DNA from: a virus
IMG/VR virus record: IMGVR_UViG_3300045988_154953
Length of the DNA: 64,000 nucleotides
Strand: one strand, 5' to 3'
Position 1 is the first letter of the stretch, and each line of letters begins with the position of its first letter. Below, in pieces: positions 3,797-62,596 of this stretch. A program made the position numbers and the translations under genes. A model generated the notes under the pieces. That model had not been told where the DNA came from. It saw only the letters and a list, made by a program, of their open reading frames with translations, and did no database searches.

Positions 3797-4012
3797 TTAT
3801 TTTCTTCTCTTGTTTCTACGTTCAATCACATCTAATGCTTTTCTTGCATCTTCATCAGAAGAAATCTCTAATAGTGATCTCAGATTATACTCTGATTCAC
3901 AAAGATAATAGGTGGCATGTTTAGTGTGAGTCTTACTGATACCATTTTCCTTGTATCTCACACCATATTTTTCATTTAATTTTTTTGCAATTTCTTTTGA
4001 TATCTTGATCAA
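3797..4012 (-). CDS. hypothetical protein (basic C-terminus)
   Basis: ORF track; stop lies 19 nt upstream of the next start; no motif recognised. Confidence 0.5.
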   Translation of the reverse strand: MIKISKEIAKKLNEKYGVRYKENGISKTHTKHATYYLCESEYNLRSLLEISSDEDARKALDVIERRNKRRK

Positions 4013-4063
4013 AAATCTTTCCTCATTTCATTTATAAATTTCTCCAGAATAGGAGATTAGAAA

Positions 4064-4135
4064 CGGCCTCAACGGGAATCGAACCCGTCTTTCCAAAGTG
4101 ACAGTCTGGCGTACTAACCAATATACTATGAAGCC
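4064..4135 (-). tRNA. tRNA-Asp (anticodon GUC)
   Basis: Hand-folded cloverleaf: acceptor GGCUUCA/UGAGGCC, anticodon arm CCAGA-CUGUCAC-UUUGG, T arm ACGGG-UUCGAUU-CCCGU. No encoded CCA. Confidence 0.85.
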
Positions 4136-4203
4136 ATAACTGTACTTTTTATTGGAAAAGTACAAAACCAATTAATCATGCCAAAAAATAAAAACGAAAG
4201 GAT

Positions 4204-4275
4204 AGCACCACATGGGATTCGAACCCATCTCACCTGGTTGGAAGCCAAGTATACTAACCACTATACTAGTGGTGC
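4204..4275 (-). tRNA. tRNA-Gly (anticodon UCC)
   Basis: Acceptor GCACCAC/GUGGUGC, anticodon arm CUUGG-CUUCCAA-CCAGG, T arm AUGGG-UUCGAAU-CCCAU. Confidence 0.85.
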
Positions 4276-4415
4276 AATAACTAGTCGCTGTTTGATTTAA
4301 TAAGGATACACTGAAGATCCTAAACTATATTTGTTCACTTACTGTAGAATTAATATAACGTTTTTATTAATAATTTGATCAATGTTAAATTTGCTGTTAG
4401 CGACTAAAATAGCAA

Positions 4416-5213
4416 CTACTGATGAGCTGCGTTAGAAAGTTTCTTTACATATCTATTTTTTAACATTTCTTCGATTTGTTTATAAGTAAAATCCATACTA
4501 ATAAGACCTGTAACGATAGTTTCCACCTCTTCAACTTTTTTTAATTCAGATTCTGTAAAACTATCTCTTAAAGCGTCATTTGTTTTAACGTTTCTTTCTA
4601 ATCTAAGAGATTTTGCATCACACCCAAAAATAATGTCATAAATCATATTAGTATAATTAGGGTAAGCAAATTTTTTATTCTTACTTTCAGGAATATATCT
4701 TGAAATAGCAGATGTCATTCGTTTTCTTTCAATAATTCCAACTTCTCTTTGAATAGCCCATGATTTTCTATCAATTTCAGTCTTTTCTTCTATATTAAGA
4801 AGATAATTTCTGATTTTGGTTGCCAATAAATTACTTGTCATCAACATACCTATTCTAAGCAAAGATCGTTTAGTTAAAATGGTAAGACTTGATGCATAAG
4901 ATAGGCTAGGTTCATTTGAACCTGACCCCAATTCTTCCTTAAATTTCTTCAATTCTTGCCCTTTAAGTACAACCATACCATCTTCTTCGAATTCATCTCT
5001 ATTTCTCTTAATTAGAGTCTTCACAGTATCCATACTGCATTCATAATAATTAGCAGCTTGTTGTACAGTTACAATCATGTCATCTGTCAAATAAGGTATA
5101 ACCTTTATTTTGTCAAGAAAATCATAGGATATATTATTTAATGTTTCATTTCTTAACGTTTTACTTTCCGTATAAATTAGTTCTTTGTCATTTTGATTTT
5201 TCATATTTTTCAT
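4416..5213 (-). CDS. phage antirepressor-like DNA-binding protein (ORF6N/KilA-type features)
   Basis: AAGGAGG lies 8 nt upstream of the ATG. TILTKRSLLRIGMLMTSNLLATKIRNYLLNIEE resembles ORF6N/BRO-type helices. The family call is tentative. Confidence 0.45.
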   Translation of the reverse strand: MKNMKNQNDKELIYTESKTLRNETLNNISYDFLDKIKVIPYLTDDMIVTVQQAANYYECSMDTVKTLIKRNRDEFEEDGMVVLKGQELKKFKEELGSGSNEPSLSYASSLTILTKRSLLRIGMLMTSNLLATKIRNYLLNIEEKTEIDRKSWAIQREVGIIERKRMTSAISRYIPESKNKKFAYPNYTNMIYDIIFGCDAKSLRLERNVKTNDALRDSFTESELKKVEEVETIVTGLISMDFTYKQIEEMLKNRYVKKLSNAAHQ

Positions 5214-5493
5214 GAAAGAATCCTCCTTTATAAAATATTTATCATTGCTTTATGTGGAGCGACTGCGGTAACAATCGTTCCATAAAAAAGTTTATTTTAT
5301 GAACTATGGGTGATCACCCCACATAAAACAATGATTTATTTTAAAAATTAAAAGAACCATATCATTTAGATACAGTTCTTTACACCATCGTTATAATCTC
5401 TTCGATATTCATCTAACCGAGAGATACCTATCACCGATTCAATTTTATAAATATTACATACCAACTAATCGCCAAATTAATTATAGCTGTAAA

Positions 5494-5567
5494 TGGGTAT
5501 AAGTGGACTTGAACCACCGACTCACGATTTAAAAGACCGTTACTCTATCCAACTGAGTTACATACCC
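5494..5567 (-). tRNA. tRNA-Lys (anticodon UUU)
   Basis: Acceptor GGGUAUG/UAUACCC, D arm ACUC..GAGU, anticodon arm ACGGU-CUUUUAA-AUCGU, T arm GGUGG-UUCAAGU-CCACU. Confidence 0.85.
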
Positions 5568-6409
5568 AAAATAAAAAATCCCATGCATTACACATGAGAC
5601 TTTCATTCCTATTAGGCTGAGATATTTGACCTAACACGTTACCATCTGCTGCCGTTGGAGACAGTTCATCACACAGCCGATTAAACTGTAGGTAACAACG
5701 ACACTGATTTTGTGAAAATCAGCAAAAATCTTACAATGAGGTATTATAGATTTCCTTTTTGCACATCGTTCCTTGCGAGATTCAAAGATTGCAGTCTTTT
5801 ACGGTTGCACATATTCGTACTTCCTTACATGTCGCTTTGCGAGCTTCATGCATGTTCATATTACAGAACAATAAGTCGTTTATTTCCTCAAAGTTGCACA
5901 CACTTTTGCTTGTTAATATAAAATTATTTGAAATTAATGCTTTTAAATCTTTATTTAATTTTTCAATCATAAGAAAGTATGTACGTATTATGGATGATGA
6001 GGTGTACATTCGACCATTCGTGACTTTTGATCACGACCCAATCATCACCATCCTGGTCACTTTGCGAGTTTCCTTTAGACTATTCCAACTATCTTTCGAT
6101 TTGAGTCAGAAATGTCCAATTAATACAGCACTTGCTCTTGCGGAGTTTGCACCATAAAACAATCTTACCGTCCACCCATTTCTGAGTTTATTTATAGTAC
6201 TTTTTACATAATACCCGACCAACCATCATCCTCAGCGGATGCCCCAAGATTTTAGGTTGGAACGTTAGTAAGTATTGGTTTTCCGTCACCCTCTTTCGAG
6301 AGGCACTTTAGCACGAACACTAAGAATGCTTTATACGTGTCACCACGCTTATTTTCAGTCTAATATAGACTCTGGAACCGAAACCGTCCCAGCCTACAAA
6401 GTAGGAGAG
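5568..6409 (-). ncRNA. candidate large structured RNA embedded in the tRNA operon (GOLLD/ROOL-class or unclassified)
   Basis: 842 nt with no credible ORF, flanked on both sides by co-oriented tRNAs. GC-enriched relative to neighbouring genes. Contains many short helices, one capped by GAAA in minus sense, and a G-U pair that is valid only in minus sense. Boundaries are simply the tRNA ends. Confidence 0.45.
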
Positions 6410-6484
6410 TAGCGAGAGTTGGATTTGAACCAACATATGACACAGAGAATGAATCTGCCGAGTTACCAAATACTCTATCTCGCA
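6410..6484 (-). tRNA. tRNA with CAU anticodon (Met, fMet or Ile2-type), atypical
   Basis: U8-A9, D arm GAGU..ACUC, anticodon arm GCAGA-UUCAUUC-UCUGU, T arm GUUGG-UUCAAAU-CCAAC. Positions 1 and 72 are U-U, position 37 is U, and the variable region is 7 nt. Confidence 0.6.
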
Positions 6485-6486
6485 AA

Positions 6487-6580
6487 CGAAGAGAGCAGGA
6501 TTTGAACCTGCGGTACATAAACTTAATTTGTACGTCTGATTAGCAGTCAGATACGATAAACCAAACTCCGTCATCTCTTC
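6487..6580 (-). tRNA. tRNA-Ser (anticodon GCU), class II with long variable arm
   Basis: Acceptor GAAGAGA/UCUCUUC plus discriminator G, anticodon arm UCUGA-CUGCUAA-UCAGA, variable arm GUACA...UGUAC, T arm GCAGG-UUCAAAU-CCUGC. Confidence 0.85.
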
Positions 6581-6765
6581 TTATTTCCATAACAACACAA
6601 TCATTGTCCTGGATTTTATGTCTTCTATACTGCCCGTTTAGAGCTGTGTTTTCTATATCTCATATAGAAATGCTTAATATTACATAGTATGATGAATTAG
6701 TCATGTTGGAGGTTGAGGGATACTATATTTCTATAGTACCCCCATTATTCTTGAAAACGTATTGC

Positions 6766-7551
6766 CTATTTCTTAACTGTTTTAGCCTGCTTTAAACTAG
6801 CTGGGCCAAAACTACCATCAACTGATAATCCTTCTGCCTTTTGAAAAGCTTCAACTGCTGCTTTTGTCTTAGCTCCGAAAGATTTATCAACCTTGTCTTT
6901 GTAAACACCATACCACTGTAAAAATAATTGCAAATATTTAACCCGATCACCAGTATCACCTAACTTTAAACATCCCTTGGAAGGTAAAGTTGGAAATGTA
7001 CCATTATATGATCTCTTCTTAGAAATATTGCTTGTAATTGTCTTATTTTTGCGAATAAACCAAATACAATTAGTATCATAACGTAATGTTTCTGGACTGT
7101 AATAACCTGTACGTCCTCTAGCACCAGAATCTCTTACATATAACTTGCCATCTTTATAATCTGTAATAGCAATGAAATGACCACCTGATGTCCAGAAATT
7201 ATCTTTTCCGCCATTTTTAGTACCAACAACTAAAAAAATAGCCCACCAGTCACCAGTTGCATTTTTAATTTGATCCATAGCTTCATTCCAAATTGAACCA
7301 CCTTTATGTTCCGGTTTATAATATATTGAATTAAATCCATAATGTCGAATAGCATCTGTCATACCCGCTCGTGTTGTACCTGAAGAAGAGAAGTATCCCT
7401 GATCATATAACCAAGTGGCAGTTTTCTTTGGAGTAATGTTTGTATCTCTATTATATACAATAGAAGCTAAAGAACATGGGCCACATCCAGAAATTGGCAT
7501 AGAAACACCACATACTGTTCCCCATTGAGATTGAGTAAATGTCTTGCTCAT
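6766..7551 (-). CDS. endolysin: cysteine-peptidase-like N-terminal domain + PG_binding_1 C-terminal domain
   Basis: N-terminus SGCGPCSLASI with downstream GGHFIAI (Cys/His peptidase pattern). C-terminus LKLGDTGDRVKYLQLFL...FGAKTKAAVEAFQKAEGLSVDGSFGPASL is a typical peptidoglycan-binding repeat. Confidence 0.75.
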   Translation of the reverse strand: MSKTFTQSQWGTVCGVSMPISGCGPCSLASIVYNRDTNITPKKTATWLYDQGYFSSSGTTRAGMTDAIRHYGFNSIYYKPEHKGGSIWNEAMDQIKNATGDWWAIFLVVGTKNGGKDNFWTSGGHFIAITDYKDGKLYVRDSGARGRTGYYSPETLRYDTNCIWFIRKNKTITSNISKKRSYNGTFPTLPSKGCLKLGDTGDRVKYLQLFLQWYGVYKDKVDKSFGAKTKAAVEAFQKAEGLSVDGSFGPASLKQAKTVKK

Positions 7552-8263: not shown

Positions 8264-11044
8264 TTATTGAACTTTTTTTGAAAAATTAGACAAAAACAAA
8301 TCTTTATTCATTTTATATAGAAGTTTCAGAACATTTCTTGTATATTTCGTATATTGTTTAAACTCTTTTAAATTTACACCAACACCTGAACTCATACCTA
8401 AAGATGTTTCGATTAATCGATTAATAGTTTTTAGATTTTTTATTTTAATGGCTCTTAATTTTTCAATTATACGATCATTTTCGGCCTCAACTCTTATCAT
8501 TCTATCTTCTGAACTTTTTGTGTTATGTGTAATATCATAGATATTTTCATTATATTCTTCAGCCAATTGACGTATTTTCGTCATTTGTTTATGATTCGCA
8601 GTTCCATTTATTTTAATAAAAAATTTCTCTGTCGGAATAGTATTGGAACTAGAAATATTTTTTATTTTTTTTAAGGAATTTTGTAAATCATTCATTGGGC
8701 AAATCAAATCACTATTAATACGTAATGATAATTGATCTTTTTCTTTTTGAATTTGTTCATACGGAATCTCTTTACCATTTTTCGTATGCTTAATCTTTTT
8801 TGTATACTTCATGAATTCTGGAAAGTCTTCTTTTGTAACAATTTCCTTTTTTATAACCTCGCCATTTTCATCCTCATATTCTATGTATTTTATAACTTTG
8901 TTGTTTTTCATAGATGGAAGCTTTTTTATACGTTTTATTTCTTGAATACCATCAACTTCATATTCTCGTTTACAACCATCTATTATAATTTGAGCAATAA
9001 CTGATAAAATAACAAAATTATCGTATAACTCATTCAGTTCCTCTTCGTCTGGATTATCTTTTTGTTTCTCAGTCCAATAATATGTCATGGCCAATTGAGC
9101 AAGATTACTAGATTCGCCAATACCAATTCTGGATTTAGCAAATTTATTATCCATACGAGCATATTCTTTCAAAGTATTATTATAAGTAATACCACTTTCT
9201 TTTAACTTATTAACAATTGTTGGGAATTCTTCATATGCTTTTTTAGCATTTCGAACCATCACCGGATGATTTGTTACAAAGAAAAAATCACTATCAAAAT
9301 CACATCCGTTAGCACGATCTTGGATATCTGTATGGATACAATTTACAGCTAATATATTAGGGCTAAATTCAAAATATTTTTTCATTAAATCGCTATGATG
9401 ATTATGTAAATAACAAATGTTATTAGGACTATTGTGGGGATTTCTTATACCACATAAGTATTCGTCATCGTTAAAGCGTGTAGTATAGCATTGAATTGTT
9501 CCAGGTTCAACATTCAATGTTGGATCATTCTCCCAATTTTCGTCAACAGTATAGAGTAGTAGTGCATATGGATTTCCACAAATCGTTAAATTATCAGCGT
9601 TAACAGTTATTTTACCGGTTCTCAATTTATCCACATACGTTTTAATAATTTGTCTCTTTTCGTATCTAAACCATGTGCTATTAGCAAAATCATTGTTGTG
9701 GTCATATAAATCAGCAAGCATTTCATAATGATTTATTGTATTCTTATTTTTTCGTAAAAACTTTTCAAAATAATCATTATCAGTTTTTAATTTATTCACA
9801 TATTGAATGCTCGTATTAGCTAATTCATCAATATCTTCTTTGCTACATGGAAGAGTATTAACCATTTGATAACTCATTTGCTGTACATCATCTAATTTAC
9901 TAGGATGATCAGTTTTTACAATACCAAAAAATGACCCATCGGCATTTACTCTTTGACACCAATATTCATATGCATCTCTAGGAGTTTCACCCATCAACGA
10001 CATGAATTTCTTCCATTTAATAGCATTATCAGTTGTAATCATTTTAATATCTTTTACATAATGCCATTTACCAAACATATCTTGAATTTGATAGGTATTA
10101 TAATCATATTGGTTTTTTATACACCAATCTCTAAGAAATTTTTGAATATAAGTTTTGAAAGCACATGCTTTGAAAAAATGATTTCTTAAAAGTGCCATGC
10201 CATTAACAAATTTTGGAAGTGTAGATGCTTCAATTAACGCCATACCATCCCATAAAGTATTTTTGACTTTAATTGTATCATTATTAACAACACATTTTTT
10301 TTGAGTTTTCTCATTAACAGTATATTCTTCTGCTTGAACAATTTTGGCAGCAGTTTGAAAAAAACTATCTTGATCTTTAAGAATAAGTATATCTTCAACA
10401 GGAAGATAAAACTTTTCGACAATTGTACTTGTTGTTAATGGTGCATAAGCTGACATTTCAACAATTTTAGCATCATTTTTAGGAAGTTTCTTACCAAGTC
10501 CCATTGTCAGCCAATCGTATGCTTTTTTATACAATTTGCTATTTATAAACATTGCCTGACCAACTTTAGCTTTTGAAGAATTACGATATAACATTTTATA
10601 ATGAATTGTTTGTTCTGTTATTTTTTCATCTTTCTTTGTGTTATATTTTATAGACACACCATTTTCATAAAAATCTTCACGAATTTCATCTCTTGACTTT
10701 TTAATATAATTATCTCTATTAGACTCTATTTTAGCGTATAAATTACGGATTCTATTTTTAGATTCTTCATCAAGTTTTTCGTCATTTTCATAATCACCAA
10801 ATTGTTTATTTAAGTGTTTGATTTCCTCATCATATGTTCTTGATCCAAAATCAAAATCTAAACAAATAATATCTCTAGTGCTTTTTTTATTCCAATCATT
10901 TAGTCCATTATCTTTTATATAATCATAAAACAAACTTTTACTAAACATTGCATCTGTGTATTCATATCTATCTCTAACACCTTGATTATATCCAAATAAC
11001 GTACCAGCCTTTATATTTTTTATTTTTAATCCATATTTTGACAT
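8264..11044 (-). CDS. YonO/RdRP-like single-subunit double-psi-beta-barrel RNA polymerase (putative)
   Basis: 926 aa. The segment GIRNPHNSPNNICYLHN...ANGCDFDSDFFFVTNHP parallels the RNP...(x)n...DxDGD catalytic region of YonO and eukaryotic-type RdRPs. DFDSD is encoded at 9301-9287. An HU gene lies directly downstream. Confidence 0.55.
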   Translation of the reverse strand: MSKYGLKIKNIKAGTLFGYNQGVRDRYEYTDAMFSKSLFYDYIKDNGLNDWNKKSTRDIICLDFDFGSRTYDEEIKHLNKQFGDYENDEKLDEESKNRIRNLYAKIESNRDNYIKKSRDEIREDFYENGVSIKYNTKKDEKITEQTIHYKMLYRNSSKAKVGQAMFINSKLYKKAYDWLTMGLGKKLPKNDAKIVEMSAYAPLTTSTIVEKFYLPVEDILILKDQDSFFQTAAKIVQAEEYTVNEKTQKKCVVNNDTIKVKNTLWDGMALIEASTLPKFVNGMALLRNHFFKACAFKTYIQKFLRDWCIKNQYDYNTYQIQDMFGKWHYVKDIKMITTDNAIKWKKFMSLMGETPRDAYEYWCQRVNADGSFFGIVKTDHPSKLDDVQQMSYQMVNTLPCSKEDIDELANTSIQYVNKLKTDNDYFEKFLRKNKNTINHYEMLADLYDHNNDFANSTWFRYEKRQIIKTYVDKLRTGKITVNADNLTICGNPYALLLYTVDENWENDPTLNVEPGTIQCYTTRFNDDEYLCGIRNPHNSPNNICYLHNHHSDLMKKYFEFSPNILAVNCIHTDIQDRANGCDFDSDFFFVTNHPVMVRNAKKAYEEFPTIVNKLKESGITYNNTLKEYARMDNKFAKSRIGIGESSNLAQLAMTYYWTEKQKDNPDEEELNELYDNFVILSVIAQIIIDGCKREYEVDGIQEIKRIKKLPSMKNNKVIKYIEYEDENGEVIKKEIVTKEDFPEFMKYTKKIKHTKNGKEIPYEQIQKEKDQLSLRINSDLICPMNDLQNSLKKIKNISSSNTIPTEKFFIKINGTANHKQMTKIRQLAEEYNENIYDITHNTKSSEDRMIRVEAENDRIIEKLRAIKIKNLKTINRLIETSLGMSSGVGVNLKEFKQYTKYTRNVLKLLYKMNKDLFLSNFSKKVQ

Positions 11045-11059
11045 CTACCTTATCACCTT

Positions 11060-12805
11060 CTAACTCATTTGTACTTGATAACCATATATGCTATTCAATT
11101 GTCTTTTCTTCGGCTTCTTCTGTTTTTTCAACTTCTTCAATTTCTTTTGATACTCTGTTAATTCTTTTTCTAATTTTTTCTTCTCTAAATAATTACGACA
11201 GTTTTTAATCTGTATCTTTAATTTTCGAATATACTTTTTTGTATCCTCTTCAGTCGTATCAACTTCATGTTCTGATTCAGTTAATTCTGCAGCTAATCCC
11301 GTATCTACAAGTCGTTGATATTCTTCGTTTACGGTGAATGCTAATTCAGGATTGAAATCAAGATTTCTTCCATTAATATATTCATTTGTTGATTGTACCG
11401 GTATATTTACATAATTATTTAGCATCCGACTAATGTTTTCTTCAAATGAGGTAACATTTTGTTTAAATTCAACCATACTCATTTGATCCTTTTTGATTTT
11501 CGTCAATCGTTCATTATAATATTCTCTTAATTCATCAGAGAATGTTTTCATTAAATCATTCCATTGAATCAACTCTATTTCTTCTATATTAATAGACTTA
11601 ACATAGTCAATAATATCCTGAACGAATTCCAATGTAAGAATAAACGTCTCATACTTCAACGTGCTACGAAAACATCTAAACTCAATTGTTTCTGAGTGTT
11701 GTAAATTTAAAGCAACTCGTTTACCATTATTTTTGTATTTACCATATAAATCAACAATACTTGTTTCATTCTTACCATTCCCAACAAATTGACTATAGAA
11801 ATTATTTCTCCTGGCAATAACACAAATTTCATCATTAAATTTTTCAAGGATATATAAAATCTTAGAGATAGTAAGCTGCTGCATTAACTCTGTTTTACCA
11901 AGATACTTTCTATCAGCGTGTATATGTAAACCGGCACTATTTGCATCATGACCTTTGTATCCTTGTTTATCCAAATATTCAAACATCTGTTTGTAATTTA
12001 AAGTCTTATGATATTCTAAGCTGCATGGCATTGTATCTAATTCGATTTGAACTGTACTGTCACTTGTACTATAAATTAAATTCTCATCATCAGTATCCGA
12101 TCCATTCATGATTTGAATACATTTCTTTACAACACTTTCACGATTATCTTTCTCATTCTCATTCGTGTTTTCAGCAACCTCGATCTCAGCACCGAGTAGA
12201 AGAGGAGTGTCTTCAGTATCTAACTTATGATGAACATATTTCGGTTTATAATTATATGGATGAATATATTTTTTTATGTTAGAATGACCAAAACATTCGT
12301 ATAATAAATCAACATTAAAATAAGAATTATTACTAAATAATGTACCTGCACTACTAAAATAATTCTGTCTGCCAGTTATATTTCCATTATTCATATTTGG
12401 TTCTAATGAAGAACTTGGCACAACACATTCTCCTAATGGTAATCTTCTTTGTCTAATTAAACGTTGATAAACTCTATTCAAACTAGTTGTACTTAAATTG
12501 GAAAGATTATAGATTCTTATGGCACTTAAATAACTATCAAAATTACGAGGATGCTCACTTATACATCCATTTTCATCAAAAAATGTTTCATTTATATGAA
12601 AATTGTAACTTCTCCGTATAAAATTGTTAAAACTTTCTATATTGAACGAGTATACTTTATCAAGTTGATAATCATTAGTTCTAGTTACAATACGTATATT
12701 ATTACCAAGTCTTTCTGTATGTATAATTAACGCACCGTCGATAGTATAAGGATCCTGCATACTAATTATATGTCCATTAAGTTGAATATCTGGTATAAGT
12801 CTCAT
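11060..12805 (-). CDS. amidoligase-like (glutamine-synthetase-fold COOH-NH2 ligase) domain protein with Lys-rich coiled-coil tail
   Basis: LLLGAEIEV, GLHIHADRKY and ALNLQHSETIEFRCFRSTL resemble Amidoligase_2 motifs. ATG at 12805 follows AAGGAG; the track start at 12835 is an extension. Confidence 0.4.
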   Translation of the reverse strand: MRLIPDIQLNGHIISMQDPYTIDGALIIHTERLGNNIRIVTRTNDYQLDKVYSFNIESFNNFIRRSYNFHINETFFDENGCISEHPRNFDSYLSAIRIYNLSNLSTTSLNRVYQRLIRQRRLPLGECVVPSSSLEPNMNNGNITGRQNYFSSAGTLFSNNSYFNVDLLYECFGHSNIKKYIHPYNYKPKYVHHKLDTEDTPLLLGAEIEVAENTNENEKDNRESVVKKCIQIMNGSDTDDENLIYSTSDSTVQIELDTMPCSLEYHKTLNYKQMFEYLDKQGYKGHDANSAGLHIHADRKYLGKTELMQQLTISKILYILEKFNDEICVIARRNNFYSQFVGNGKNETSIVDLYGKYKNNGKRVALNLQHSETIEFRCFRSTLKYETFILTLEFVQDIIDYVKSINIEEIELIQWNDLMKTFSDELREYYNERLTKIKKDQMSMVEFKQNVTSFEENISRMLNNYVNIPVQSTNEYINGRNLDFNPELAFTVNEEYQRLVDTGLAAELTESEHEVDTTEEDTKKYIRKLKIQIKNCRNYLEKKKLEKELTEYQKKLKKLKKQKKPKKRQLNSIYGYQVQMS

Positions 12806-12816
12806 TTGTTTCTCCT

Positions 12817-13311
12817 TTAATCCCATAAATCCCAAAAGAATAAATTAAACAGTTTCATAAAAGCATTTTTATTTTGATTCATCACATTACAAATCCGTTT
12901 ATAATCATCCATAGTTCTGCAATTAAAATCATAGTCATCATCATATATATTCTTACCATATAGAACTTTTTCAACATAATCTTCATCCATCATTTGTAGA
13001 TGATAAATCATAGTATCTAAAACCATATTTGTTTGTTCACTTGTTAGAAATAAGCTATTAAAACTATATATATATTCTTCCGGCACATTAAATAAAGTAA
13101 AACGATCATTTTTGAGTCGCTTAAATATTTCTATTGTTCGTATTCGAAATATTGAATCATAATTCCACAGTTCTCTATAATCGTATCCTAACCAGGCACG
13201 CTGCCATGCATAATAAATATCTCTAAATATATTTTCGATTTTATATTTTAAACTACAATTTTTGTATTGAGTCCTATATTCTTTCAAAGAACCTTTTAAT
13301 CCTGATGACAT
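12817..13311 (-). CDS. hypothetical protein
   Basis: ORF track; abuts neighbouring ORFs in a co-oriented operon. Confidence 0.55.
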   Translation of the reverse strand: MSSGLKGSLKEYRTQYKNCSLKYKIENIFRDIYYAWQRAWLGYDYRELWNYDSIFRIRTIEIFKRLKNDRFTLFNVPEEYIYSFNSLFLTSEQTNMVLDTMIYHLQMMDEDYVEKVLYGKNIYDDDYDFNCRTMDDYKRICNVMNQNKNAFMKLFNLFFWDLWD

Positions 13312-59007: not shown

Positions 59008-59214
59008 ATGGAATGGTCGTGTCCTGTTTGTGGTGCAAAACATGATAGAGACATTAACGCTGCAAAAAATATACTGGCGGAGGGATTACGACAAATAGCA
59101 TAAGAAGAATAACTATATAGGGCAGGGACTGCCCAAATTTACGCCTGTGGAGATAGTAGGTCACGAGGTCTGTGAAGCAGGAAGCCCATTGGCTTTAGAC
59201 AATGGGTAGTTCAC
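59008..59214 (+). mobile_element. tnpB: IS200/IS605-family remnant: TnpB C-terminal 31 codons plus right-end/omega-RNA-like scaffold
   Basis: [31 protein letters not shown] (59008-59103) is the CxxC + DRDxNAAxNI end of TnpB. The downstream GGGCAG-GGA-CUGCCC and CCCAUUG...CAAUGGG hairpins end in GUAGUUCAC (59214), as in IS1341-type right ends. Confidence 0.6.
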
Positions 59215-61387: not shown

Positions 61388-62596
61388 ATAAAGGTACAGA
61401 GAACGGAGCAACAGAATATAAGAAAAGGACATCCGATATTTGAAATTGTTGATAGATATTGCTTTTATTCTAAAAATGTATATAATGAAGCGAATTATCT
61501 CATGCGACAGGAATTTATAAACAATGGAAATAAGCTTAATGCTAATGACATTCAGAAACATATGCAGGATATGGATTGCTATAAAGAATGTGGATCACAG
61601 GCAGCACAGAAAACAATTCAAATGTTGGATAAAATGTGGAAGTCATTTCTTGTGTCAATAAAGGACTATTACAAAAATCCTGCTAAATATTTGGGCAAAC
61701 CAAAAATTCCAAAGTATTTGAAAAAAGATGGGAGACAAGTGTTTTCGTTGAAGAATATTCAATGTTCATTAAAAAATGGGTTGTTTAGAATCTCTTTTAA
61801 ACCGTTCAAAGGATATACAGTGAGAACACATGCGGATGGGAAACTAATACAATGTAGATTTATACCGAAAGGTTTATATTATGTAATGGAAATCGTCTAT
61901 GAAATTGAAGTACCAAATATTTCAGAAACTTCTAACAGAGTGGCTGCTATTGATATTGGAGTTGATAATTTCATAACTATGGTAAACAACATTGGTGAGA
62001 ATCCAATAGCTGTTAAAGGTGGAATTATTAAGTCGATCAATCGGTTTTTTAATAAACAGAAAGCAAATATTCAATCAGAGTTGAAAAAAGTTAATGGGAA
62101 AGATTGGTCAAAGAAGTTACAAAAACTTACAGACAAGCGATACGAAATGATTAAATACCAAATGCATTGTATAAGTAAGTATGCAGTTGATTGGTGCGTC
62201 TTGTATGGAATTGATACATTAATTGTAGGACATAACGATGAATGGAAACAAAAGAAACAAGGTATGCAGAACTTTACTTACATTCCTTATGAACTGTTTA
62301 TTCAGATGCTTGCATATAAATGTGAAAATAACGGAATCAGGTTCGTAGAGAATGAAGAGACATATACTTCTGGAACATCATTTTTTGACAATGAAGATCC
62401 TGTAAAAGAGAATTATAATAAGGAACGCAGAGTTTATAGAGGATTATTTATTGCAGATTGTGGAAAGAAGATAAATGCAGATGTAAATGGGGCATATCAG
62501 ATATTAAAGAAGGTAATTCCTGATGCGTTTAGCAATGGAATAGAGGGTGCAGGTTCACATCCAACAATTATTAACTTGGCTATGCTGATATCGTAA
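61388..62596 (+). CDS. tnpB: TnpB-like RNA-guided-nuclease family protein (IS200/IS605 accessory type), zinc-finger-less, no canonical start
   Basis: RuvC-like AIDIGVDNF, ENEETYTS and INADVNGAYQI. The frame is open from 61382 (after TGA 61379-61381) and reads (I)KVQRTEQQNIRKGHPIFEIVDRYCFYSKNVYNEANYLMRQ, a typical TnpB N-terminus. It has no ATG/GTG/TTG before M at 61502. ATA at 61388 lies 11 nt after AAGGAG. Confidence 0.65.
   Translation: MKVQRTEQQNIRKGHPIFEIVDRYCFYSKNVYNEANYLMRQEFINNGNKLNANDIQKHMQDMDCYKECGSQAAQKTIQMLDKMWKSFLVSIKDYYKNPAKYLGKPKIPKYLKKDGRQVFSLKNIQCSLKNGLFRISFKPFKGYTVRTHADGKLIQCRFIPKGLYYVMEIVYEIEVPNISETSNRVAAIDIGVDNFITMVNNIGENPIAVKGGIIKSINRFFNKQKANIQSELKKVNGKDWSKKLQKLTDKRYEMIKYQMHCISKYAVDWCVLYGIDTLIVGHNDEWKQKKQGMQNFTYIPYELFIQMLAYKCENNGIRFVENEETYTSGTSFFDNEDPVKENYNKERRVYRGLFIADCGKKINADVNGAYQILKKVIPDAFSNGIEGAGSHPTIINLAMLIS

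Follow-up and report, generated by a model that had tools for sequence, protein, structure and literature searches.

The window analysed here is a stretch of 64,000 nt of viral DNA (IMG/VR record IMGVR_UViG_3300045988_154953). Its minus strand carries a cluster of tRNA genes in which tRNA-Ser(GCU), tRNA-Met(CAU) and tRNA-Lys(UUU), detected with ARAGORN and Rfam, lie within 1 nt of the positions given by an earlier interpretation made from the letters alone (hereafter the sequence-only reading). Two further tRNAs, tRNA-Gly and tRNA-Asp, are found downstream of tRNA-Lys. When read by eye, the top of the acceptor stem of the tRNA(CAU) contains a U1-U72 mismatch; an elongator Met, an initiator-like tRNA and Ile2 are the candidate identities of this molecule. 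The phage genes around this region encode PhoH-like, endolysin, ClpP and processivity factor proteins. A 926-aa protein (8264-11044, minus strand), previously termed RNAP, did not match any Pfam family. It shares 24% identity with an Enterocloster phage product labelled 'RNA-dependent RNA polymerase' and is closer to uncultured human-faecal phage contigs. Beside it, a 591-aa protein (11060-12835, minus strand) matches Amidoligase_2 weakly, with 23.7 bits for a cut-off of 22.

The segment enclosed between tRNA-Met and tRNA-Lys is the subject of this work, and its features are collected in Table 1. As the sequence-only reading had stated, it is poor in open reading frames, all of which are short: the longest reaches 132 aa on the plus strand and 75 aa on the minus strand. 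Its GC content of 37.8%, compared with a window mean of 31.1%, corresponds to the 97th percentile of 842-nt sliding windows, and the enrichment reported previously is therefore real but modest. The G+C counts on which that claim was built (29/60 at 5641-5700 and 27/60 at 6241-6300, against 12/60 at 8281-8340) are exact, and the AT-rich core described within the segment exists as well. Folded in minus sense, the whole RNA has a z-score of -6.0 relative to 20 dinucleotide shuffles.

Table 1. Features of the tRNA-to-tRNA segment and of its flanking genes, in 5' to 3' order on the minus strand; contacts are predicted equivalents of the env-38 inter-subunit bridges.
Feature	Position	Strand	Predicted contact	Evidence and remarks
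tRNA-Ser(GCU)	6487-6580	-		ARAGORN; Rfam tRNA, 55.6 bits; first gene of the local tRNA/GOLLD cluster
tRNA-Met(CAU)	6409-6484	-		ARAGORN and Rfam; adjoins the 5' end of the GOLLD RNA; no CCA encoded
Whole tRNA-to-tRNA segment	5569-6408	-		GOLLD RNA core 5614-6408 plus 3'-terminal hairpin
GOLLD 5' domain	6054-6408	-		355 nt; 13 covarying helices (RNAalifold and pair counts)
5'-terminal hairpin CCUAC-UUU-GUAGG	6393-6405	-		3 nt after the tRNA
GNRA hairpin CGUG-GUGA-CACG	6336-6347	-		between conserved strands AAAAUAAG and UAUAAAG; equivalent to env-38 P3/L3
GNRA loop of the P3-equivalent hairpin	6340-6343	-	B1	GNRA in 69/70; covarying stem
GOLLD 3' domain	5614-6053	-		full-length RF02032 match; 89 projected pairs
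P13/P14 hairpin	5992-6053	-		helices 1-2 of the projected structure
L14 CAAAA, A-minor donor	6025-6029	-	B6	kept in 69/70
A/U-rich variable linker ('AT-rich core')	5912-5991	-		80 nt at 15% GC
J13/15 strand AAGCAAAAGU, L20 partner	5902-5911	-	B7	kept in 69/70 homologues
L20-equivalent hairpin with CGCAA loop	5826-5852	-		helix 5 of the projected structure
L20 CGCAA	5837-5841	-	B7	kept in 70/70
Two adjacent hairpins, P21a/P21b equivalents	5765-5798	-		helices 8-9; loops CUGCAA (5789-5794) and CGCAA (5773-5777)
GC cores of L21a and L21b	5789-5794, 5773-5777	-	B8, B9	kept in 70/70
3'-terminal GOLLD motif AUAUCUCAGCCU	5614-5625	-		end of the Rfam model; conserved in the clade
3'-terminal hairpin, intrinsic-terminator-like	5574-5604	-		terminator scan; U-rich tail to 5569, directly before tRNA-Lys
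tRNA-Lys(UUU)	5493-5568	-		ARAGORN and Rfam; adjoins the 3' end of the segment

GOLLD RNAs are among the largest non-coding RNAs of bacteria and phages, and their cage structure was solved only in 2025. The 3' domain of the segment matches the entire Rfam GOLLD model RF02032, from position 1 to position 416 of 416, with 89.8 bits and an E-value of 2.5e-23 in a 3-kb search (5.3e-22 in the whole 64-kb window). The strand of this match agrees with the minus sense argued earlier from a G-U pair. The score nevertheless falls under the curated gathering score of RF02032, 150 bits, which is an operational annotation cut-off and not a structural feature; for this reason default annotation shows no GOLLD here, and only the tRNAs are reported when Rfam gathering thresholds are applied to the window. 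The homologues described below behave in the same manner, since all 15 members tested score between 77.5 and 113 bits, which places the entire clade under the cut-off; canonical GOLLDs retrieved in this analysis reach 270-326 bits. The models of ROOL, tmRNA, RNase P, group I/II introns and HEARO gave no match in 4000-7000 at E <= 10, which rules out these identities for the locus, and none in the whole window at E <= 0.01. The sequence-only reading, which had placed a large structured RNA in the tRNA operon, is thus borne out by a full-length match and by the covariation of 29 homologues presented below. Among the identities that it had left open, a GOLLD or ROOL relative or a new class, GOLLD is retained on the strength of this match, of the covariation and of the 5' domain; ROOL and a new class are not.

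Homologues were gathered by exact-pattern scans of IMG/VR using conserved stretches of the RNA. A total of 121 homologous loci was obtained in this way, mostly in phage contigs of 80-217 kb, and two further loci were found in MAGs labelled Lachnospira and Kineothrix. The loci flanked by a tRNA on both sides yielded 68 distinct full-length sequences, and none of these IMG/VR copies exceeds 67% identity to the window RNA. The contig to which the window belongs is a 215-kb ENA assembly, and a relative that is 91.7% identical is present in a Logan assembly. GenBank phage genomes searched by blastn, with either the window RNA or a clade member as query, gave only tRNA matches or nothing, and the phage genomes deposited there would accordingly contain no copy of the clade detectable by this program. 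An IMG/VR search for relatives of the neighbouring endolysin found nothing. One pattern match from a genome scan, a Gracilibacteria locus (L125), was rejected: it lies among tRNA genes and contains no GOLLD.

The carriers of this clade are large uncultured human-gut phages. The two MAG bins mentioned above, together with the distant Enterocloster phage homology, hint weakly at Lachnospiraceae as hosts. The gene order around the RNA is conserved: in 52 loci the gene of the 926-aa protein precedes it on the same strand, and the ClpP and PhoH-like genes are located downstream; this synteny argues for a vertical inheritance of the GOLLD clade within one phage lineage. Length variation within the clade is observed at two sites of the 5' domain. 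Seven loci (L006, L040, L044, L049, L075, L107 and L108) contain an insertion of 44-58 nt in the internal loop of helix H6 (columns ~222-278 of the alignment A2 described below), and in another subset, to which the window belongs (6372-6356), H1 and H2 are separated by an additional, optional hairpin. Both additions have the look of peripheral expansion segments.

The structure of the 3' domain was assessed on an alignment (A2) of 29 representatives less than 93% identical to each other. The Rfam consensus structure, which was not derived from these sequences, was projected onto A2 via the window sequence. The 89 projected pairs are 92.6% paired, and compensatory changes are found in 42 of them, compared with 3-8 in controls in which the partners were slid by 1-3 columns; none of 500 shuffles reached the observed values. 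Covariation among homologous phages, which the sequence-only reading had proposed to look for, is present. At the level of individual helices, pairing in the clade reaches at least 83% in 12 of the 14 Rfam helices, and 13 of the 14 display compensatory changes. The two weak ones are helix 6 (59% paired) and helix 9, the equivalent of P21b (76% paired), whose sequences are better accommodated, as judged by eye, by a shifted register of 3 bp that leaves a CGCAA loop. RNA position 795 marks the end of the domain. The linker differs in both length and sequence among the aligned homologues, and the general architecture is that of a two-domain GOLLD, with a 355-nt 5' domain, P13/P14, an 80-nt linker and a conserved 3' domain.

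These alignments also clarify the short motifs singled out previously. The three hairpins that had been named all sit at hairpins supported by covariation (6302-6289, 5852-5826 and 6069-6059), but the last two are closed by a CGCAA loop and not by the AAA loop originally drawn. The four CUCGCAA-like motifs were recovered at 6142-6138, 6066-6062, 5841-5837 and 5777-5773, and each of them is a conserved hairpin loop: the third is L20, the fourth is L21b and the other two belong to the 5' domain. A home-made covariation scan for pseudoknots and kissing pairs was discarded, being swamped by phylogenetic signal.

RF02032 covers the 3' domain; the 5' domain was folded from the clade itself. Its 78 pairs are 98.3% paired, a proportion inflated by the fact that the structure was taken from the same alignment; the number of pairs with double changes is still large, with 59 compensatory pairs against 13-21 in the slid controls. 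A sub-alignment restricted to the first 130 nt misplaces helix H1. The relation of this domain to canonical GOLLDs was approached with the tetradecameric GOLLD env-38, known from a marine metagenome and solved by cryo-EM (PDB 9MEE; Kretsch et al. 2025, PMC12286853). The order of elements at the 5' end, compared by eye, is the same in env-38 and in the clade: a hairpin, AAAUAA, a GNRA hairpin, (G/U)AUAAAG, a closing helix with an inner hairpin, and a hairpin. The exact env-38 pattern had no match in IMG/VR, but a degenerate motif, GUCGUNAAAUAAA-N9-13-GGAUAAAG, built to fit env-38 and some clade members, matched more than 120 IMG/VR stretches from many environments. Fourteen of these loci were picked solely because they offered sufficient downstream sequence, and in 14/14 a canonical GOLLD 3' domain scoring 270-326 bits was found on the same strand, 373-408 nt downstream of the motif. 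This association identifies the proximal 5' domain of the clade (P2-P5), as far as sequence can tell, as homologous to the 5' domain of canonical GOLLDs. A direct comparison is far less sensitive: a sequence-only profile of the clade gave with nhmmer a marginal, collinear match to env-38, tested as a single sequence (E = 0.034). The canonical GOLLDs retrieved with the motif sit in very large phage tRNA arrays, and 8 of the 14 loci have a phage-encoded tmRNA within a few kb (L138, L140, L141, L146, L148, L152, L155 and L158).

The distal part of the 5' domain is more divergent. It has landmarks in common with canonical GOLLDs, namely CUUAA..CGAAAG..AAG throughout the clade and UGUAAAAAGU in the window itself. 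It is ~50-70 nt shorter than its canonical or env-38 counterpart, and it terminates in a GCAA-loop hairpin instead of the L12 AGGGAUA loop. In env-38, the latter loop kisses the UAUCC loop of the neighbouring subunit (PMC12286853), and this AGGGAUA/UAUCC pair (bridge B4) is absent from the window RNA. Taken together, the RF02032 match, the covariation in both halves and the 5' motif that retrieves canonical GOLLDs indicate that the tRNA-to-tRNA segment is a GOLLD RNA with both domains, homology of the 5' domain being established for its proximal part P2-P5. It represents a divergent branch of an established family, not a new kind of RNA.

GOLLD RNAs consist of a variable 5' domain (residues 1-420 in env-38) and a universally conserved 3' domain; they form RNA-only cages of 12 or 14 subunits with a disordered linker inside, and they are located near phage tRNA clusters (PMC12286853; PMC12990946). 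In env-38, adenines of the L3 loop make the inter-subunit contact B1 (PMC12286853), and the L21a and L21b loops form the self-kissing bridges B8 and B9 (PMC12286853; PMC12990946). The contact elements of the window RNA were mapped from the env-38 contact table by sequence correspondence and checked in 70 sequences. Since the env-38 sequence used contained errors (its length was 815 rather than 833 nt and its 3' end was garbled), residues were mapped by local sequence context and not by number. In this way the GC of the J13/15 strand AAGCAAAAGU corresponds to env-38 G546/A547, the L20 partner in bridge B7. The L14 signature UCAAAAG, the J13/15 strand, the L20, L21a and L21b loops and the 3' end UCUCAGCC are found in the window and in 69-70 of the 70 clade sequences; some of them belonged to the search patterns, but they are equally invariant in 22 loci found by an unrelated pattern. 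We infer that the loops of the window RNA are equivalent to the inter-subunit contact elements of env-38.

The resemblance to env-38 extends to the general organization of the RNA. Both molecules measure ~800 nt and consist of a 5' domain, P13/P14, an A/U-rich linker that is disordered in env-38, and a conserved 3' domain. They have in common the 3' helices, the loops UCAAAAG, AAG(C/A)AAAAGU and CGCAA-type, the 3' end UCUCAGCCU and the presence of both P21a and P21b, and each sits directly downstream of a tRNA-Met. On the other hand, sequence similarity between the window RNA and env-38-like GOLLDs is very low, as reflected by their RF02032 scores; the equivalent of Rfam helix 6 is only partly paired in the clade, and the window RNA possesses an extra, terminator-like hairpin at its 3' end.

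Other members of the family can be compared in the same way. The GOLLD of Streptococcus agalactiae (Sag) is a 700-nt dodecamer (PDB 9L0R) whose 3' domain alone already oligomerises (review PMC12990946). This Firmicutes-associated RNA has a reduced 5' domain, which shows that the family tolerates the loss of peripheral helices, and it is devoid of P21b; the window RNA, by contrast, possesses hairpins resembling P21a as well as P21b. The GOLLDs of Mycobacterium tRNA arrays and of Caulobacter phages are embedded, as here, in the tRNA clusters of phages or prophage-like regions (Morgado 2020, as cited in the GOLLD literature). These copies can have a tRNA within the J13/15 linker, as is the case of tRNA-Gly in Caulobacter phage Ccr34 (KY555147); in the window clade, by contrast, the linker is free of tRNAs, which are found on either side of the RNA. 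Compared by eye, the Caulobacter phage GOLLDs have 5' domains without similarity to that of the clade. ROOL is likewise a large, ornate, cage-forming RNA of phages and prophages found near tRNAs, but its sequence and fold are unrelated to those of the window RNA.

The two ends of the RNA are closely flanked by tRNAs in most of the clade. An upstream tRNA lies within a few nucleotides of the first base in 96 of 112 loci, Asn(GUU) being present in 52 loci and Met(CAU) in 43, and a downstream tRNA (Pro, Lys, Thr, Asn and others) follows directly in 105 of 112. A hairpin occurs within the first 24 nt of the RNA in 68/70 homologues, with C-G/U-A exchanges. At the other end, the hairpin that comes after the conserved UCUCAGCC has a dG <= -5 kcal/mol in 70/70 homologues, with compensatory changes, and is followed by a run of at least four U in 57/70. 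In nearly every homologue the tRNAs are directly adjacent to the RNA and share its strand, which makes a co-transcription of GOLLD with its flanking tRNAs plausible. A scan upstream of tRNA-Ser on the minus strand found no sigma-70-like promoter. In that region, just past the endolysin stop codon, a ~10-bp hairpin without a U run (GGGGUACUAUAG-AAA-UAUAGUAUCCC, ~6712-6742, minus strand) could act as a terminator, act as a stability element or belong to a phage promoter region. Some 110 nt downstream of tRNA-Lys, and before an ORF6N-like gene, a second terminator-like hairpin is followed by a U run (5351-5381, minus strand); the tRNA/GOLLD transcription unit may end there.

This organization suggests how the RNA might be released. 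In the precursors of tRNAs lacking CCA, RNase Z cleaves just 3' of the discriminator base; RNase P generates the 5' end of tRNAs. Given these specificities, a transcript comprising GOLLD and the flanking tRNAs would be cut by RNase Z, or by a 3' processing enzyme of equivalent function, just past the upstream tRNA, which lacks CCA, so that the 5' end of the RNA is generated, and by RNase P at the 5' end of the downstream tRNA; both cuts together would release the GOLLD RNA. The terminal hairpins would protect both ends, and a fraction of the transcripts may also stop at the 3' hairpin and its U tract. Copies of the released RNA would then associate, like the solved GOLLDs, to form a hollow multimeric cage enclosing the linker. 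Processing by tRNA enzymes and cage assembly would be the most likely mechanism.

One sibling genome carries an interrupted copy of the RNA. In L131 (Logan SRR25571972_40948, 483-1798), an insert of ~1.3 kb containing a gene for a 369-aa IS605-family TnpB replaces the central 345 nt of GOLLD (window ~6125-5781); the flanks are 98.5-99% identical. What is missing runs from the last part of the 5' domain through P13/P14 and the linker into the beginning of the 3' domain. L131 is a natural GOLLD-disrupted variant, and a loss of the RNA is therefore possible, at least transiently. The window has a TnpB gene of its own at 61502-62596 on the plus strand (Pfam OrfB_IS605 and Cas12f1-like TNB), the product of which is only 25% identical to the TnpB of L131. 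The window also contains, at 59012-59184, a region with 69% similarity to the right-hand end of the insertion in L131; it may represent another IS end or an omega-RNA-like region.

The explanation that best accounts for these observations jointly is that a GOLLD RNA of ~795 nt, followed by a 3' hairpin, is encoded by the segment; this RNA belongs to a divergent gut-phage clade, would be released by tRNA enzymes and would form a cage. Weighing against it are the score under the gathering cut-off, the weak helices 6 and 9, the reduced distal 5' domain, the negative promoter scan and the TnpB-disrupted sibling. A probability of roughly 0.88 is assigned to this reading as a whole. Its main competitor accepts the GOLLD homology and disputes the assembly: with an altered 5' domain, the RNA would not form the canonical 12- or 14-mer and would exist as a monomer, as another oligomer, or as a structured spacer setting the processing and the ratio of the flanking tRNAs. 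The reduced distal 5' domain without the L12 kissing loop points in this direction, and the number of subunits is known to vary with such helices, as illustrated by the Sag dodecamer and the env-38 tetradecamer (PMC12990946); the tight apposition of a tRNA on both sides and the terminator-like hairpin preceding the downstream tRNA would also suit a spacer. All the inter-subunit elements of the 3' domain (L14, J13/15-L20, L21a and L21b) are nevertheless kept, the 3' domain of Sag GOLLD is sufficient for oligomerisation (PMC12990946), and the conservation of ~170 base pairs exceeds the need of a processing spacer. This competitor is consequently considered unlikely.

Still less probable is a new class of large RNA that would resemble the GOLLD 3' domain merely by convergence or chimerism. 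The score under the Rfam gathering score and the profile that barely detects env-38 might be invoked in its favor, but they are outweighed by a full-length, collinear match with so low an E-value, by the pairing and the compensatory changes of the Rfam helices, by the P2-P5 motif tying the clade to canonical GOLLDs, and by a linker position and a genomic context that are the same as in GOLLD. Finally, a decayed protein gene or non-functional intergenic DNA, to which the 132-aa plus-strand ORF could be ascribed, is effectively refuted: the longest ORF, with a median length of 74 aa over the 70 distinct homologues, switches strand and frame from one to another, so that no ORF is conserved among these 70, ~100 base pairs show compensatory changes, the loops are invariant while the stems vary, and the folding z-score is strongly negative.

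The retained GOLLD reading leaves the concept of what a GOLLD is unchanged. It reveals a whole clade, ~120 loci in large human-gut phages, that routine Rfam annotation has missed. As a deep branch of the family, this clade sharpens the definition of the helices and contact loops that are indispensable: the 3'-domain contacts are kept, but the 5' cap is retained only in part. The very regular tRNA-GOLLD-tRNA arrangement suggests how the ends of the RNA are made. As for the GOLLD cage, the function most often cited for it concerns tRNA or translation in the course of the lytic cycle. More tentatively, the clade could be a structurally distinct GOLLD subtype, with a shortened 5' cap, CGCAA-type loops replacing the L10-L12 kissing contact, possibly another cage number or geometry, and a fixed tRNA-GOLLD-tRNA processing cassette with protective terminal hairpins. 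This is a possibility to be entertained with some doubt; if it were true, the TnpB-disrupted sibling genome would be a ready-made knockout for the study of GOLLD function.
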